From the NCBI GenBank assembly GCA_032123355.1, contig JAQBFM010000060.1:1-51189 (forward strand): a stretch of DNA of 51,189 nt, in the 5' to 3' direction. Made by a program: the position numbers and the translations under genes. Within the stretch, counting starts at the first letter, position 1. The number at the start of each line of letters is the position of its first letter. The notes beneath the pieces are model-generated. The model was not told the origin of the DNA. It saw only the letters and a list, made by a program, of their open reading frames with translations, and made no database searches. The DNA is from Lentisphaerales bacterium (lineage in GTDB: Bacteria; Verrucomicrobiota; Kiritimatiellia; SPBP01). This document shows positions 41,612 through 48,143 of the stretch, piece after piece.

Positions 41612-41620
41612 CCGCATCCG

Positions 41621-41708
41621 CTTGTCCTGAGCGTAGTGAAGGGCTGCATTTCTTGCAGTTTCCTTGATTATTGGATTTGAGTGTTGGATATTGGATATTC
41701 AATCAGTT
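41621..41708 (+). repeat. Repeat module cluster 1: REP-like 29-mer plus CAGTT-delimited TTGGATA heptamer module
   Basis: CTTGTCCTGAGCGTAGTGAAGGGCTGCAT (41621-41649; 26/29 identical to 43247-43275); CAGTT at 41656 and 41704 flanking TTGGATATTGGATATT. Confidence 0.8.
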
Positions 41709-41738: not shown

Positions 41739-41882
41739 ATGGTGGGTGTGGGTTTGCCAGCAGTGATGCGGTGCGGATTTTCCTCCAGAGGCGGACAGGT
41801 GTGCGAAAAGCGACGCGGCCATATCACCTCATCCGCCCCTGGAGGAAAACCCGCAATGCAGTGTTGGCAGGCCAACCACCAT
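41739..41882. repeat. Long imperfect inverted repeat (about 145-nt hairpin)
   Basis: 41772-41795 pairs with 41832-41855 (22/24); outer ATGGTGG/CCACCAT and intermediate stems extend it. Confidence 0.8.
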
Positions 41883-41915: not shown

Positions 41916-43220
41916 CTAAGCGGAAGCCTGCGGCGCGGGCCGCAAGTTCCTCGGCTCCTTGAAGCCGCGCAGAAGAACGAGCGACCACACCATCATCGCC
42001 GCCGACAGCAGCGCCGGAATCGTGAAGCTTACGAAATACGCGCGGACAATAGCGCTCGCCGCGACTGCCGTCAGCATCGCCGGCAGCATCACCGCCGATA
42101 CAATCGCGAGGTATGTCGGCCGCCTGCGTGGCGGACAGATCTCCAGCCGCACCGTTGCGTCCCCGATCAGATTCAGCTCAAACGCAAGGCCCAACAGGAA
42201 GAACAGCACCATGAACACTGCGTTACTCTTCGTCATTATCGCAAGCAAGCAGGAGCCAATGTAGATTGTCCGCGAAATCGCCATCAGGATCTTGCCGCCG
42301 CACCGGTTTCCCAGCCAGCCTGCAAAGAAATTGCCGGTCAGCCCGCCGGTCATCTGCGACGAGACGAGCAGGCCCAGAAACGCTTCAGGCTCCCCCGTGG
42401 CATCCAGTGCATGTATCCCCAGGAACGGCAGCATGATGAAGATACCCTTCGAGCAGGCGCTCGCGCCAATGAACGCACGGACCTGAGGCTCGCTACGTAT
42501 CAGGCCGGGCAACTCACGCATATAGGCAAGAAAAGGACGGCGTTGCGTGTCCGCATGTTCACGGCGAGGCGGCTCCCTGATAAGCGCAAAGATGCCGTAC
42601 GACATCATCATCAGCGCAACAACAATCGCGTGCAGAATCCCGTAACCCGTTGTCCCCGGGTAGCGGGCCAGCACCAGCTTTATCGTCATGCCCGCCACAA
42701 TCCCGACAACTGATCCAATAATTGACCTCAGCGCCCAGACCGAAGCCATGCGTTCCTTGGGTATTACGTTTGCCGTCAGCTCCTGCCATGCGCTGAAGCC
42801 AATCCCGCCCGTGACTCCCGAGAGGAACGGGGCCAGTGCCACCAGCGACAGCGTAAGCAGCGGACGAGACGTTCCGAACATGAACAGGCTCAGCATCGCC
42901 AGCAGAAATGGAATCCTCTGAAAGGCGCCCGTGATCAGGACCAGTGGTTTCACCCGGTGAAGCCGTTCCACCAGATGTGATGTAAAAAGAGACGGCCATG
43001 CGATGCCCAGCATCATCATCATAGGCATCAGCGCTATCAGCCAGGTGGGACCGTTCAACGAGCGGATCATTACCGGCATCACCGTTTGTGCCGAGAGGAA
43101 AGTCATCGCGCCGATGAACAGCCCGCCCTCGATGCCGTGTGCGAGATGGTTGTTCCTCGCAATGCGCCTCGCGTCCGCGCCCGGCTCCCTTTGTGCCTTC
43201 TTGTCACTATTGGCGTTCAT
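41916..43220 (-). CDS. MFS transporter
   Basis: About 12 hydrophobic helices, GWLGNRCGGK loop motif, PPRRRPTY, KEPR terminus. Confidence 0.85.
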   Translation of the reverse strand: MNANSDKKAQREPGADARRIARNNHLAHGIEGGLFIGAMTFLSAQTVMPVMIRSLNGPTWLIALMPMMMMLGIAWPSLFTSHLVERLHRVKPLVLITGAFQRIPFLLAMLSLFMFGTSRPLLTLSLVALAPFLSGVTGGIGFSAWQELTANVIPKERMASVWALRSIIGSVVGIVAGMTIKLVLARYPGTTGYGILHAIVVALMMMSYGIFALIREPPRREHADTQRRPFLAYMRELPGLIRSEPQVRAFIGASACSKGIFIMLPFLGIHALDATGEPEAFLGLLVSSQMTGGLTGNFFAGWLGNRCGGKILMAISRTIYIGSCLLAIMTKSNAVFMVLFFLLGLAFELNLIGDATVRLEICPPRRRPTYLAIVSAVMLPAMLTAVAASAIVRAYFVSFTIPALLSAAMMVWSLVLLRGFKEPRNLRPAPQASA

Positions 43221-43471
43221 CTGTGTCTATCCGTGTTCATACGTGGCTTGCCCTGAGCATAGTGAAGGGTTGCATGTTCTTGTATTGCGTTGTCCTGCAG
43301 TTCTTGGCGTTCTTCGCGATCTTGAGCGCGCCAGCGCGGGTGTAAGAATTCGCAGTTTCTATCCTCTATCCTCTATCAGTTCCCCCTCATCCCTCAGCCT
43401 TCCGCCTTCATCCATCATCTATCAGTTCCCCCCACACCCCCACACAGTCAGTTCTCTGCGTCTCTGCGCGA
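43216..43471 (+). repeat. Repeat module cluster 2: CAGTT-punctuated short-tandem-repeat array
   Basis: CAGTT at 43298, 43353, 43377, 43423, 43449; 43321-43381 is 60/61 identical to 46222-46282. Confidence 0.85.
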
Positions 43472-43578
43472 AAATGGCTTTTGTCCCGAAAAGCCGAAAC
43501 TCTACCACACACTGCTTGAATATCCAGCAGCATGTAGGGCCTTGCACTTTGCCTGTTGGCGCTGACGTGGTATGTTCA

Positions 43579-43917
43579 ATGCACGCCATGCCGACCAGGC
43601 CACCAACCCAATTCGAGCTGCGTGTCTATCGCGCAACCACGAAGATTCCCCGGGGCCGCGTAACAACCTACGGGCTCCTGGCCAGGCACATCCGATGCCG
43701 CTCCGCGCAGGCCATCGGCCAGGCATTAAGCAGGAACCCCTTCGCCCCCGAAGTGCCTTGCCATCGTGTAATAGCCTCCGACATGACACTCGGCGGGTTC
43801 GCCGGTCGAAGCGGCGGCAAAACGGTTGCCCGCAAGAATGAACTCCTTGCGGCCGAAGGTGTCGAGTTCAGGACCGGCCGACTGCTCGACCCAGAACGCC
43901 GACTCTATCGGTTCTGA
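43579..43917 (+). CDS. Single-domain MGMT (O6-alkylguanine DNA alkyltransferase) family protein
   Basis: IPRGRVTTYG, AIGQALSRNP, PCHRV active site, LGGF; start ATG 43579 or 43588. Confidence 0.88.
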   Translation: MHAMPTRPPTQFELRVYRATTKIPRGRVTTYGLLARHIRCRSAQAIGQALSRNPFAPEVPCHRVIASDMTLGGFAGRSGGKTVARKNELLAAEGVEFRTGRLLDPERRLYRF

Positions 43918-44531: not shown

Positions 44532-45833
44532 ATGTCAAACACAATTGATCCCAGCCGACAGTCGGAACTCGTGCAGGAATTCCTCTACGCATGTGCTTTC
44601 TGGATCGTCGCCGCCGACGAAGAACTCAAGCCTGGTGAACAGACCTGGCTCAACAGTCAGTTCGGCAAGCAGCGAAACGATGAGCTCCTTATTCAATTCT
44701 CCGCACTCGAAGGCGACCGGTTCTTCCAGGTCCTGGACGATCTTGCCCGGGCAGTGGACGACTCCGCAAAGCGCAGTATTTACCCGGGACTCATCTCGTG
44801 GCTTCAATCCTGCTGCGGTCAAGATGGGGACATGGGCAATGCCGAAACAGATGTCCTGGTCGAACTCAAGAAACGACTATCGCTTGACACTGAAATCCGC
44901 AGGCTCACCACCGTCGTCAGTTCCGAAGAGGACACACCCACCCAGGACGAAAGGGCCGAGACCCGAATTCTGCGCGGACACACCGGCGAAGTATACGACG
45001 TCTCCTTCAGTCCCGACGGCGCCACATTTGCATCCGCATCCGAAGATGCAACCCTCAAGCTGTGGAATGCCGTCAGCCTCGAAGAAATCAGGACACTCGC
45101 CGATCATTCGAACGGCGTAATGCGCCTGAAACACTCGCCCGACGGCAACCGACTCTATTCCGGCGACAGGAGCGGAAAGATCAACATGTGGAACGCCACG
45201 GACGGCTCGCTTCTCGCGAGCCACACGCTCAAACGACAGGGCGGCGTCACCAGCATGGCCATTGCGCCCGACGGCAAGATGCTCGTTGTCGGCACCGAGG
45301 TCGGTCGGGTCATATTACTCGATGCCGACAGCCTGACAGAATCCCGGACTCTCACGCTCCAGCATAGCGGGGTCATCCGGTCCCTATGTCTCAGCATGAA
45401 CGGCAAAACAATCGTCACCGGTGGTGACGACAAGATCGTGCGCACATGGAACGTGCAAACCGGCTCTGTTGAAAAGGAACTCGACGGGCACGAGGACGGA
45501 GTCCTTACCCTGTGCGCTACGGCCGACGGCAAGCGAGTCCTGTCCGGGGCCAGGGACAACACCGTCAAGTTATGGGACCTTGCCGAGGGCAAGGCAATTC
45601 GCACTTTCGTGGGACACTCCTTCAGCGTCTACGGTGTCGATCTCAGCAGGGACGGCAAACTCTGCGTATCCGGATCCTGGGATCACACCGTCAGGCTATG
45701 GAGCATAGAATCCGGTCAGCAACTTGTTGTCTACGAGGATTACTCAAGCCGATTCAACACCGTCGCATTCGACGCCGACGCCACCCTCATCATCGCAGCC
45801 TCCTCCGCCGGCACTATTCATTGCCTTCGCTAG
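44532..45833 (+). CDS. WD40-repeat protein with helical TerB-like N-terminal domain
   Basis: About seven GH...W[DNS] repeats (e.g. [27 protein letters not shown]); N-terminus has AD.E...E and DG....E pattern. Confidence 0.85.
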
Positions 45834-45868: not shown

Positions 45869-46213
45869 GAACTACTGTCCACGAATCTACACGAATAAAT
45901 GCAGAACCACGGATGGACACGGATAAATGCACACGCTATGAGGAACAGGATGGAGCTCGTTTACAGATATGGCGGAGCATGAACCTGACCCGTTGAGCCG
46001 CGGATCCCGCGAAGCGGGATCCAGCAATGGCATCAGGAGCTGAGCCGGGAAACAGGTTTCCCTGCGCAGTTCCTGACTGCCATGCGCCCCGATTCATAGG
46101 GGCGCGGCTCAACGTACCTTCAGATTCTTGCCCGGCATCGTGTTCGCCGAAGGCGGGCTCTGGTGCTGGGCCCCATTCGTGTCTATTCGTGTGATTCGTG
46201 GGCAAGGCAGTTC
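45869..46213. mobile_element. MITE-like element with imperfect inverted arms made of CACGAAT repeats
   Basis: Left GAACTACTGTCCACGAATCTACACGAATA (45869-45897) versus reverse complement of 46184-46213, GAACTGCCTTGCCCACGAATCACACGAATA. Confidence 0.55.
45991..46114. repeat. REP doublet (REPIN/BIME-like) cruciform
   Basis: CGTTGAGCCGCG / CGCGGCTCAACG ends, each with its own hairpin (GGATCCCGCGAAGCGGGATCC; GCGCCCCGATTCATAGGGGCGC), inner stem and GGGAAAC/GTTTCCC core. Confidence 0.75.
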
Positions 46214-46365
46214 TTAGCGCCCTTGAGCGCGCCAGCGCGGGTGTAAGAATTCGCAGTTTCTATCCTCTATCTTCTATCAGTTACTCCCACACTCCCACAC
46301 CCACATACTCCCACACAGGCAGTTCCCCATCCTCTATCCTCTATCAGTTACCCACACACGCAGTT
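46175..46365 (+). repeat. Repeat module cluster 3: CAGTT-punctuated short-tandem-repeat array
   Basis: CAGTT at 46208, 46254, 46278, 46320, 46345, 46361 separating TCCTCTA, CTCCCACA and other modules. Confidence 0.88.
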
Positions 46366-46366
46366 C

Positions 46367-47518
46367 CTAAACAGTCCCACTCTTCAGGAACTCATGGTTC
46401 ACTGGTGCGGTCACTGTCTTTCCATTTGTCGAAACGAATGTTGCGCTGCCGACCCCGAAACTCACCGATGCCACCTCGTCAAAACCGCGCGGCACCTTCA
46501 CCACGCCCTGGATATAGTTTACTGATGTCGGACGTTTTGCAGAAAGCACAGCAGCCGTCGGGATGCCCGCATCTGAAACCGGATTCGCGCCGACCGATGC
46601 CGCCAGCCCTTCGGCGAAATATGCACACACATCTTCAAGTCCCAGGCACCGGTTTCGCCCGTCCCATGGAGGCTCATGCCTGCCATGATTCGAAATCCAG
46701 AATACTGTTGCCGGCAAAACCGCCGGATCCTTCAGTGAAAACCAGGCATACCCAGCCTTCCGATTCACTGCCACCGTCCAAGCCGGATCCGTGCCGCGAC
46801 GATTGAAAACCGACAGCAGATCCGTGAAACCTTCTCGAACCGGAAACTCAGTGCAATCCCCGTATGCAGGCTTCTTCCAGAGCAGCGGCACCTTCTTCAG
46901 GCTGCCGAACTTTTCGTTTATCGCAAGCGACTGGTATTCACGTCCCGCCGGGTTGCTGAAAAGGGTGGGGGCCGTCATTCCGAACACGATCGGACTCGTC
47001 GACACCTTCACACAGCCCGGTGTCTCTGGAATCGCCAGCGTTGCGTGATGACCCAGCGGCATCCGGCCATTAATCCCTTCAACCACGTCTTTGCAGTAAA
47101 CAACATTATGCCCGTCCACCAGCGCCAGTTCCTTTGTCACCCAGCCACGCCTGACCTTTGCAGCAAGCGTCAGCCGGATCGATGTCACGCCGCCACTGGA
47201 CTGCACGCCCGCCAGCTTCCATTTCGAGCCCGCCGGTTCGCCATGGACATCGTGCTGTTCGCCCTTCCACTTCTCGACGTTCGCGCCGAAAGGAAGACAG
47301 AAGAAATCGCCCCGTAACGGACGCAACACCGGCACCGGCAGTTTCCGGTGTTCGTCCTGCCATGGGCTTATGTAATACGGCTGAACCGGCGTGCGGCCCG
47401 CGCGATAGAACTTCACCGGGGCCATGTGCCCGCCCAGTTCCGTGACCGCCAACTCCACATCTTTGCTCAGAATGATCCAGGAAGGCTGACCTGCAATGAT
47501 TTTCCGGACTGGTTTCAT
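46367..47518 (-). CDS. Conserved hypothetical protein, probable galactose-mutarotase-like fold
   Basis: ATG 47518 with AAGGAG; GGHMAPV, LRGDFFCLPFG, HGE, GHHATL, PWDGR..CLGLED. Confidence 0.7.
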   Translation of the reverse strand: MKPVRKIIAGQPSWIILSKDVELAVTELGGHMAPVKFYRAGRTPVQPYYISPWQDEHRKLPVPVLRPLRGDFFCLPFGANVEKWKGEQHDVHGEPAGSKWKLAGVQSSGGVTSIRLTLAAKVRRGWVTKELALVDGHNVVYCKDVVEGINGRMPLGHHATLAIPETPGCVKVSTSPIVFGMTAPTLFSNPAGREYQSLAINEKFGSLKKVPLLWKKPAYGDCTEFPVREGFTDLLSVFNRRGTDPAWTVAVNRKAGYAWFSLKDPAVLPATVFWISNHGRHEPPWDGRNRCLGLEDVCAYFAEGLAASVGANPVSDAGIPTAAVLSAKRPTSVNYIQGVVKVPRGFDEVASVSFGVGSATFVSTNGKTVTAPVNHEFLKSGTV

Positions 47519-48143
47519 TGTTACTCCTTCTCGTTTGCAGCGTTCTGTCAATGACTCTGTCCATCACAGGGCAATCAATTCTATGTCAACGACTGGCAGC
47601 AGAACCGCCGATCTCCCCCCTTTTTCAATATCCAATATCCAACGACGCGCCTGAGATTCCGGCGGGTTACCGACGGCAATCTCCAGTCGTCTGGTTCGCA
47701 CATTCCCCCGATCATGTCAATGGCCGTCGGCTTCGCCTCGGCCCTCACATCGACTAAGCAGGTCGATTAAGCGTATCCGACGAAGGGCGGGATTACGTGT
47801 GCGAGTGAGTGTCTGCACACTTCCCTCCTACACTTCATCGATCCACTTCGTCTCCACACTTACTCGGTTACGCTTAGACGACCCACTTGATCGATCCAAT
47901 CTTTCATGCCAACAAGGAATGTGCAAGTTTCAAGGTTGCGAAGCAGAATGCAGTATCCTTGGTCATTGGATATTCAGAGTATTCCCATTCTCCATGACCC
48001 GGGTGACGGTCCCCTTGTCCAATTGCGCAGATGCCAACTCTTCAACTTCTTGACTCTTCTGTCAAGCCCTCCGATACTGTCGCCAAGAAGTGACAGGGTA
48101 ATGGCAGTTCACTCAACGAGCATGAACACAGAGAGAATGGATG

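Follow-up and report, generated by a model that had tools for sequence, protein, structure and literature searches.

In several bacterial phyla, much of the intergenic DNA is occupied by short tandem-unit repeats of unexplained origin. An example is that of the short tandemly repeated repetitive (STRR) sequences of heterocystous cyanobacteria, which are intergenic tandem repeats of heptanucleotides. Arrays of other kinds are those of integrons, in which gene cassettes that each carry an attC site accompany an intI integrase gene, and clustered regularly interspaced short palindromic repeats (CRISPR), in which repeats of 23-50 nucleotides (nt) alternate with unique spacers of similar size; transposition of the IS200/IS605 type involves subterminal hairpins, insertion 3' of a fixed target of 4-5 nt, and TnpA with or without TnpB. 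Here, we report on an array of six copies of the pentamer AACTG, each followed by a short module, that lies on the minus strand (46175-46369) of a window of 51,189 nt, namely, positions 1 to 51,189 of contig JAQBFM010000060.1 from an uncultured Lentisphaerales bacterium of sediment (assembly GCA_032123355.1). We hold, with about as much reserve as conviction, that it is a stack of solo arms, made of lineage-specific mosaic repeats, that has grown by duplication of whole units and by slippage.

Two further groups of described repeats are close to this array. Intergenic direct repeats of TAACTGA were reported from marine Beggiatoaceae, some Cyanobacteria, and Bacteroidetes, and in Beggiatoaceae they were proposed to be sites for post-transcriptional regulators (MacGregor 2015, PMC4679880). 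They form head-to-tail copies (2-6, up to 43), most of which point toward a nearby start codon at a distance of a few bases, and the same source summarizes "long simple sequence repeats" (LSSR) (PMC4679880). The second group comprises the repetitive extragenic palindromes (REP), the bacterial interspersed mosaic elements (BIME), and the REPINs, which go with REP-associated tyrosine transposases (RAYT) of the Y1/HUH type (PMC2817692, PMC3116915, PMC3733652).

Read on the minus strand from position 46369 downward, the sequence consists of a TAG stop codon, a G, and then six AACTG pentamers with modules between them, letter for letter as transcribed in the original prediction, which had been made from this DNA alone. 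The first pentamer stands one base past the stop codon, and the six span 158 nt. The modules between these joints measure 11, 20, 37, 19, and 41 nt, and a 33-nt module follows the sixth AACTG (Table 1). Tandem Repeats Finder (TRF) identified four of the six modules as tandem arrays of their own 7-10 nt unit, with periods of 7, 8, 7, and 10, which bears out the claim that most modules are of this type; it made no call for the two others, which are 11 nt (CGTGTGTGGGT) and 41 nt (CGAATTC...GCTAAG) long. There is no open reading frame (ORF) within these modules of 11-41 nt, and the array is non-coding DNA. Module 3 has copies of 88-98% identity on other contigs, and at least 8 dispersed copies keep the sequence of module 5. 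Module 3, of the GTGGGAGT type, could form a G-quadruplex, since on the AACTG strand it is G-rich and contains four runs of GGG separated by loops of 7, 3, and 5 nt.

Table 1. Positions of the AACTG array, its modules, and related features (window positions, or contig:positions for loci elsewhere in the genome)
Feature	Position	Strand	Description	Basis
AACTG joints (six)	46365-46361, 46349-46345, 46324-46320, 46282-46278, 46258-46254, 46212-46208	minus		sequence
Module 1	46350-46360	minus	CGTGTGTGGGT; short, GTGGG-type; family common with module 3	sequence
Module 2	46325-46344	minus	ATAGAGGATAGAGGATGGGG; GATAGAG-type heptamer units	TRF at 46329-46345, period 7, 2.4 copies
Module 3	46283-46319	minus	CCTGTGTGGGAGTATGTGGGTGTGGGAGTGTGGGAGT; GTGGGAGT-type octamer units	TRF at 46283-46316, period 8, 4.2 copies
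Module 4	46259-46277	minus	ATAGAAGATAGAGGATAGA; GATAGAG-type	TRF at 46259-46278, period 7, 2.9 copies
Module 5	46213-46253	minus	CGAATTCTTACACCCGCGCTGGCGCGCTCAAGGGCGCTAAG; 41 nt (CGAATTC...GCTAAG), 3' end made of GCGCTAAG-type units	sequence
Last module	46175-46207	minus	AACTGCCTTGCC-(CACGAATNNN)x3; also left arm of the 343-nt element	TRF at 46175-46200, period 10, 2.7 copies
343-nt gene-less inverted-arm element	45870-46212	minus		inverted-repeat search, sequence, dispersed copies
Upstream gene	46367-47551	minus	394-aa ORF; TTG at 47551, ATG at 47518, TAG at 46369-46367	ORF list
WD40-repeat gene	44532-45833	plus	convergent with the 394-aa ORF	ORF list, domain search
Second array	43298-43470	minus	five AACTG; orientation as main array	sequence, TRF, copies
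Third, small array	41620-41708	minus	two AACTG; ATATCCAA-type module, then the module that also ends array 2; orientation as main array	
GxxExxY genes with inverted tandem-unit arms	C88:1896-2279, C29:23732-24115, C20:1419-1814		CGCAGAG arms, CACGGAT arms, and CACAAAAG arms, respectively	
PF05635 loci (TIGR02436, four-helix-bundle, "23S rRNA IVS protein")	C73:9931-10311, C49:16021-16338, C87:5060-5377, C155:603-1313, others			
Intact Y1/HUH transposase-like genes	C75:213-1220, C40:4721-5743		336-341 aa	

The genome that holds the window is a metagenome bin of 3.35 Mb, and its division into 231 contigs, together with the location of two arrays at contig ends (C86 and C174), indicates that such repeats break assemblies; AACTG arrays also explain why bins of this kind assemble into many contigs. 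The array might accordingly be thought to reflect chance clustering or an assembly artefact of low-complexity DNA, which we regard as extremely improbable. The background rate of AACTG in the genome is 1.05 per kb per strand, in agreement with the rate of roughly one per kb on which the predicted rarity of the cluster was based. Same-strand runs with gaps of at most 60 nt number eight with at least four copies, four with at least five, and one with six, which is the array described here, whereas random placement gave a mean of 0.85 runs of at least four per strand and no run longer than five in 400 simulations. The pattern AACTGM-N10-40-AACTGM-N10-40-AACTGM was found 24 times in the genome versus 2 times for a control pattern read backward. 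As far as contigs can tell, the array is not an assembly artefact, which the original prediction had named as a refuting condition: three DNA runs, each from a different one of three other studies, yielded contigs that cover it with no differences (X13 records 14-16, for instance, correspond to 46172-46244, 46242-46328, and 46329-47000). Since the Logan contigs used break at repeats, they carry no allele information. One 10-nt unit of the ATTCGTGTCG array at 46184 was absent from contigs of two runs from different studies, which may reflect either slippage variation or a paralogous copy of the repeat. A joint at which contigs of two runs go back by 81 nt (46346 to 46266) was considered as an allele and not retained, as paralogous arrays such as that of C222 fit equally well.

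The modules belong to a population of repeats that extends over the whole genome. Counted from TRF blocks and with an own crude gene caller (84% coding), 808 of the 1555 tandem-repeat blocks are intergenic, and the modal period is 7 in these (249 blocks) versus 9 in coding DNA. The intergenic blocks group into 621 arrays. AACTG or CAGTT is present in 142 of them, on one strand only in 135 and on both strands in 7. AACTG/CAGTT is the top-enriched 5-mer at the edges of intergenic blocks (147 of 1610 edge windows versus 38.5 expected), and it also outnumbers all other 5-mers where two blocks adjoin (17 of 62 junctions; 15 of 55 when each distinct pair of units is counted once). The intergenic enrichment that had been predicted genome-wide therefore holds for clustered and block-edge positions but not for raw density, which is 2.41 per kb in intergenic DNA versus 2.04, placing AACTG at about the 160th rank of 512 5-mers. 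The context of the joint is G-AACTG-(C/A), with G at -1 in 120 and C or A at +1 in 192 of the 208 sites; T directly precedes the pentamer at 28 of them, and A directly follows it at 81. The orientation of AACTG is fixed relative to each module family: for the 88 blocks of the GATAGAG family it stands 5' of 30 and 3' of 25, with 1 and 0 in the reverse orientation, and for the 73 blocks of the CACGAAT family it stands 5' of 19 and 3' of 2. Neighbouring arrays share their orientation in 43 cases versus 23.

Another feature of the intergenic DNA concerns CTAG-type 5-mers: CTAGC/GCTAG, ACTAG, and CTAGA are the 5-mers most enriched there (up to 4.2-fold), and they are up to 3.7-fold enriched at homology breakpoints between intergenic copies, which points to another repeat family or to an avoidance of CTAG in genes.

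The order of modules follows a recurring grammar with higher-order tandem units, which is accounted for by descent and duplication. A composite that recurs consists of a GATAGAG module, ACACCCGCGCTGGCGCGCTCAAG plus GCGAAG-type units, CCTTTGCC plus CACGAAT units, and a core of about 85 nt. The order ATAGA, ACACCC-GCGAAG, CACGAAT-core is found in at least 8 copies of 84-93% identity, in which AACTG decays by point changes (AACAG, AACTA, AAATA) as the flanks do. A 46-nt unit of AACTG plus ATAGATGATGGATGAAGGCGGAAGGCTGAGGGATGAGGGGG is present once in the second array of the window, whereas C86 has two or more copies of it and C174 three or more. On C222, the GTGGG and ATAGA modules alternate 2.5 times. 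The 533-nt gap between the convergent WD40 gene and 394-aa ORF, part of which is filled by the array, is itself a patchwork of dispersed repeats, the copies of which start and stop at differing points elsewhere.

As a stack of solo arms, the array would be made of modules that lie head to tail in one orientation in the gap between these two genes and that belong to a lineage-specific, genome-wide mosaic repeat population. The tandem units of this population measure 7-10 nt and are comparable to heptamer repeats or STRR sequences; unit arrays of this type serve in the genome as inverted arms around small GxxExxY genes and genes for four-helix-bundle proteins (TIGR02436/PF05635). G-AACTG-(C/A) is the shared joint at the outer (5') edge of the modules. 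Growth, shortening, and diversification would occur by duplication or loss of whole AACTG-to-AACTG units, giving higher-order tandem repeats, by slippage of units within a module, and by copying of composite blocks to new sites. AACTG would be carried along by descent with the modules, so that a recombinase specific for AACTG would be unnecessary. The array would be expected to have little or no function of its own and is probably located in the 3' untranslated part of the transcript of the upstream gene. A contig from an RNA library that covers 46238-46387, i.e., the stop codon and four joints, is compatible with this location in the 3' untranslated region, DNA carry-over being possible.

At the lower end of the array, the last module is at the same time the left arm of a gene-less element of 343 nt. 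The inverted arms of this element, at 45876-45896 and 46175-46204, are made of CACGAAT units, its far end reads AACTAC (plus strand, 45870-45875), and its near end reads AACTGC. Inside it are hairpins (46033-46076, and 45991-46002 pairing with 46103-46114), and its core (GGGGCCCAGCACCAGAGCCCGCC...GTTGAGCCGC; about 85 nt) is conserved in no fewer than 10 dispersed copies. A single ORF, of 89 aa (45936-46205), lies between the arms; it matched no Pfam family, and neither a GxxExxY nor a four-helix-bundle gene was found by Pfam within the element, which could be an element similar to miniature inverted-repeat transposable elements (MITE) or a structured RNA. An inverted-repeat search revealed no partner arms within the intergenic region for the five modules above it, and inverted arms of tandem units are thus present at this terminal element only.

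Elsewhere in the genome, arms of this type enclose genes. All three intact GxxExxY genes (TIGR04256/PF13366; a fragment of a fourth is also present) are bracketed by inverted tandem-unit arms with the vocabulary of the arrays. The same applies to the PF05635 genes with visible flanks, of which that on C73 has GTCAGAG arms; of 15 PF05635 matches, 9 were over the cut-off. Most PF05635 loci have inverted tandem-unit arms, and several are located at contig ends. Homologues of the GxxExxY proteins are known from Desulfobacterales, Fermentibacteria, Verrucomicrobiota, Bipolaricaulota, and other phyla, where protein identity reaches 78%, and 49 of the 65 GxxExxY loci from other phyla with both flanks have inverted arms that score at least 30 with our own aligner, mostly of the CTC(G/A)CGCA(G/A)AG type. 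The distribution of these sequences suggests that the GxxExxY mini-cassette spreads horizontally across phyla, and the GxxExxY/PF05635 mini-cassettes are widespread and probably mobile. The CACGAAT and GCGCTAAG/GCGAAG modules of the array are of the same kind as the inverted arm pairs around GxxExxY genes in this genome and in other phyla, and the terminal GCGCTAAG-type units of module 5 resemble arms of GxxExxY cassettes such as TCACGCAAAGGCGCTAAGGCGCTAAG in other phyla. The suggestion of stacked solo arms of a mobile family is therefore supported in that the stack is the same kind of sequence as the cassette arms and ends in the arm of an element. The search for genes enclosed by paired arms, which had been proposed as a check, succeeded for GxxExxY and PF05635 genes at other loci, but not for Y1 transposase genes, which are flanked by another repeat.

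Three observations on the joint itself do not sit easily with growth by descent, and a fourth concerns transcription. AACTG has many different partners, with 56 left-right family combinations counted over 207 sites, of which 39 resemble background. It also stands at borders between unique DNA and a first module; in one such case, it precedes CCGAGGACGAGG at five loci whose left flanks are unrelated. Simple descent explains these findings less easily. In G022, a genome of another family of the same class, the GTGGGAGT, ATATCCAA, and CACGAAT modules are present and the AACTG joint is absent. There, AACTG was found at 2 of 295 block edges versus 4.9 expected and at 0 of 5 CACGAAT arms, a thin comparison given that only 3 ATATCCAA copies exist in G022. 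Because G022 has module types without the joint, the sequences make it look as if the joint had been added in this lineage to several pre-existing module types. Gain or loss of whole modules was seen by eye only, between paralogues; a systematic screen gave no indel bounded by AACTG (0 of 100). Lastly, transcription of the array is indicated by the single RNA-library contig, which may represent DNA.

Several of these results would be expected if AACTG were the target or recognition site of an enzyme that inserts arms or joins their ends, adding one module each time in a single orientation. A PD-(D/E)XK-type nuclease of the GxxExxY type, HUH/Y1 transposases, or something else would be candidates, and the genome has 5 Y1_Tnp, 3 intact GxxExxY, and 15 PF05635 matches. 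We consider this possible but rather unlikely. AACTG ranks first of all 5-mers at block edges and junctions, stands at borders with unique DNA, is strictly polar, and is missing in G022 from module types common to both genomes; neighbouring arrays tend to the same orientation, and breaks in the homology between copies peak precisely at the 5' edge of AACTG (0.14 versus a background of about 0.05). Over all homology breakpoints, however, AACTG reaches just 1.7 times background and the 20th rank of 512. None of 100 distinct indels between paralogous intergenic copies was bounded by AACTG, most of them being due to unit slippage, in a screen that needed flanks of at least 25 nt on both sides and so had low power for short modules. 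Paralogues mismatch at a rate of 0.136 inside AACTG versus 0.151 in the flanks (687 sites), so that the pentamer is conserved no better than its surroundings. As a terminal inverted repeat, AACTG...CAGTT forms a single pair (rank 469 among the 5-mers counted), and a role as the tip of such repeats was ruled out on this ground. The arm ends of the intact GxxExxY cassettes of the genome have near-variants (AACTAC, AACAG) or nothing in place of AACTG, and among the 65 GxxExxY cassettes of other phyla, 4 of the 130 outer flanks contained AACTG or CAGTT, roughly the number expected by chance. The repeated site-specific insertion at an AACTG junction that had originally been proposed has thus obtained no direct support, given the absence of bounded indels, of extra conservation, and of the joint at cassettes. 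The strand of the arrays relative to GC skew (59 versus 41, p = 0.09) is a weak signal that is confounded by gene orientation.

Y1 transposases were examined as the cognate enzymes and rejected. Both intact Y1 loci are flanked by inverted GGGTCAGCCC... repeats, not by array modules. This flanking repeat, an inverted GGGTCAGCCCT(T/C)NAAATA...AATAAGG, is scattered over the genome in about 20 solo copies, which are seldom beside AACTG, and together with the Y1 genes it looks like a separate REP/RAYT-like system. AACTG is found upstream of both intact Y1 loci, which was taken as a coincidence because just 5 of 41 GGGTCAGCCC matches have AACTG within 70 nt upstream. No match to a TnpB-type gene was obtained in the genome, and there were two reverse-transcriptase matches.

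A more specific proposal, which we regard as improbable, is that AACTG is the cut-and-join site of an undescribed activity of this lineage that would excise or copy single arms and ligate them head to tail beside an existing AACTG. The polarised stacks in intergenic DNA would then be a record of one such event after another. The GxxExxY protein, of the PD-(D/E)XK type, would be a plausible candidate for this activity, as would some partner of the mini-cassettes with inverted arms.

A DNA search of 30 relatives gave no match outside the repeat modules and hence no orthologous locus, an exact 24-mer from the gene end was found in 0 stretches of a metagenome contig collection, and the 18-mer joint GGGAACTGCCTGTGTGGG had 16 scattered matches in a genome contig collection, about the chance estimate for its size. 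Across 151 genomes sampled from the class, the triple AACTGM pattern is most frequent here, at 24, and the next genomes have 12, 11, 9, and 9; the matches listed were mostly pure tandem repeats of AACTG-containing units in G044 and G028 and mostly ordinary sequence in G036. The two genomes of the same family have 3 and 1 occurrences, and the system was not found in them; in one of them, G002, 400 kb of the largest contigs, which may be repeat-poor, show neither a mosaic nor a period-7 peak. On the genomes compared, the AACTG joint is specific to this lineage. In addition, pure tandem arrays are present in the same-class genomes G044, G015, G003, G018, and G143; their units, of 7-8 nt, include ACTG (CCAACTG, GAACTGAA, and TAACTGAC/TAACTGTC), and these arrays recall the TAACTGA and STRR units of other phyla.

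Alternatively, the AACTG copies might be functional cis elements, i.e., protein-binding sites or RNA-level signals of an untranslated region, with the modules as spacers or structure, for which we see little probability. The core is common to the TAACTGA repeats (PMC4679880), and two of the six joints of the array read TAACTGA. The array lies between a stop codon and downstream hairpins, is covered by the RNA-library contig, and forms part of a 413-nt stretch that folds better than its own shuffles (z = -5.6). Among arrays downstream of a co-oriented gene, 14 of 75 begin within 20 nt of the stop codon, the median distance being 66 nt with the crude gene calls; the start at a stop codon, which had been predicted, is therefore a fact at this array and not a rule. 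However, the orientation of arrays relative to transcription in tandem gene pairs is not significant (46 co-oriented versus 33 opposed, p = 0.18), the lack of extra conservation of AACTG counts here as well, and the failure to find the system in the two same-family genomes is a further point against a functional signal. The copies are 11-41 nt apart, are not in tandem, and are not aimed at start codons as those of Beggiatoaceae are. Rfam contained no family that matches the array, the sole matches being two weak ones to miRNA families at 41767-41860, and a terminator scan gave a single weak candidate, which lies within module 5 on the opposite strand and recurs where the second array has its copy of this module.

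The genes near the array encode WD40, major facilitator superfamily (MFS), and Ogt-like proteins and a sigma factor. The 394-aa ORF upstream of the array belongs to no Pfam or NCBIfam family, and its relatives, with up to 61% identity, were found in metagenome-assembled genomes of Planctomycetota and Verrucomicrobiota. The second array stands 2.9 kb from the main one, with which it has two modules in common in the same order, since modules 4 and 5 are repeated at 43306-43393 with 90% identity. It consists of a CGCAGAG arm followed by GTGGG, GAAGGC/GAGGG, ATAGA, and ACACCC-GCGAAG modules and by a CACGGAT-type arm at the start of the MFS gene. Two of the four largest AACTG arrays of the genome thus lie less than 3 kb apart in this window. 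The resulting 91-nt direct repeat of 90% identity (43306-43393 and 46206-46296) flanks three plus-strand genes, namely, those for the Ogt-like protein, a 150-aa ORF, and the WD40 protein, and the MFS gene (41916-43220) stands between direct copies (41620-41660 and 43245-43298) of AACTGCA.GAA.ATGCA.CCCTTCACTA.GCTCAGG.CAAGC. Counted from its first start, the ORF at 43003-43917, which has an Ogt DNA-binding domain (residues 203-287) and was not called by our own gene caller, overlaps the second array, and its true start is probably downstream of that array.

This genome is an unusually legible case, with arrays of differing units that follow one another in a single direction and meet at a constant 5-nt joint. 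If this joint marks an enzymatic step, it is a pointer to the mechanism by which such repeats spread, and the cut-and-join proposal, if true, would give a first handle on the movement of heptamer-arm cassettes and of the 35-year-old STRR-type repeats. If the joint is not enzymatic, the arrays show clearly how repeats can evolve hierarchically, in the manner of satellites, in a bacterium. A literature search, which left supplements and most subscription journals outside its scope, returned neither a description of a constant 5-nt joint between different tandem-unit modules nor a paper that links GxxExxY genes to tandem-unit arms.

With integron and CRISPR arrays, the array shares its polarity and a constant punctuation mark, but the mark is 5 nt long rather than an attC site or a repeat of 23-50 nt, and the modules have no ORFs. 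Neither a leader nor an integrase gene was seen beside the array, intI not having been searched genome-wide. The original statement that the array is neither CRISPR nor a simple variable-number tandem repeat stands, as its repeat has 5 nt and its "spacers" are dispersed repeat modules. Of the traits of IS200/IS605 elements, a 5-mer on one strand precedes the modules here; most modules are without a hairpin, no TnpB-type match exists, and the skew test is weak. The REP/BIME systems resemble the arrays in being mosaic intergenic composites of a small vocabulary, with a preference for gene 3' ends and a short end tag on diverse repeats (GTAG or CGTC in REP, AACTG here). They differ in that REPs are palindromes of 20-40 nt in alternating orientation, whereas the modules are one-way arrays of tandem units, and in that, in this genome, it is another repeat that flanks the Y1 transposase genes. 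The TAACTGA repeats share the AACTG core, the strand polarity, the intergenic location, and the lack of a known mechanism. Here, however, single 5-mers 11-41 nt apart stand between other tandem units and are not oriented with transcription; there are no head-to-tail heptamer copies, and the array follows a stop codon instead of preceding a start codon. With cassettes of the 23S rRNA intervening-sequence (IVS) type, the array has in common the tandem 7-10 nt unit arms and their vocabulary (CGCAGAG/GCGAAG, CACGRAT), but in contrast to the GxxExxY/PF05635 cassettes, the stack has no gene and no partner arms, and the intact cassettes have no AACTG joint. The STRR and LSSR sequences are similar in being intergenic, lineage-specific, and unexplained, and in consisting of many dispersed short arrays with several families of units of about 7 nt, traits that were all found here; they differ in that, in this genome, short arrays with unlike units succeed each other in the same orientation, set apart by a constant 5-mer. 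The kind of repeat is thus known but unexplained, and the novel part is the AACTG joint, together with its statistics and lineage specificity.

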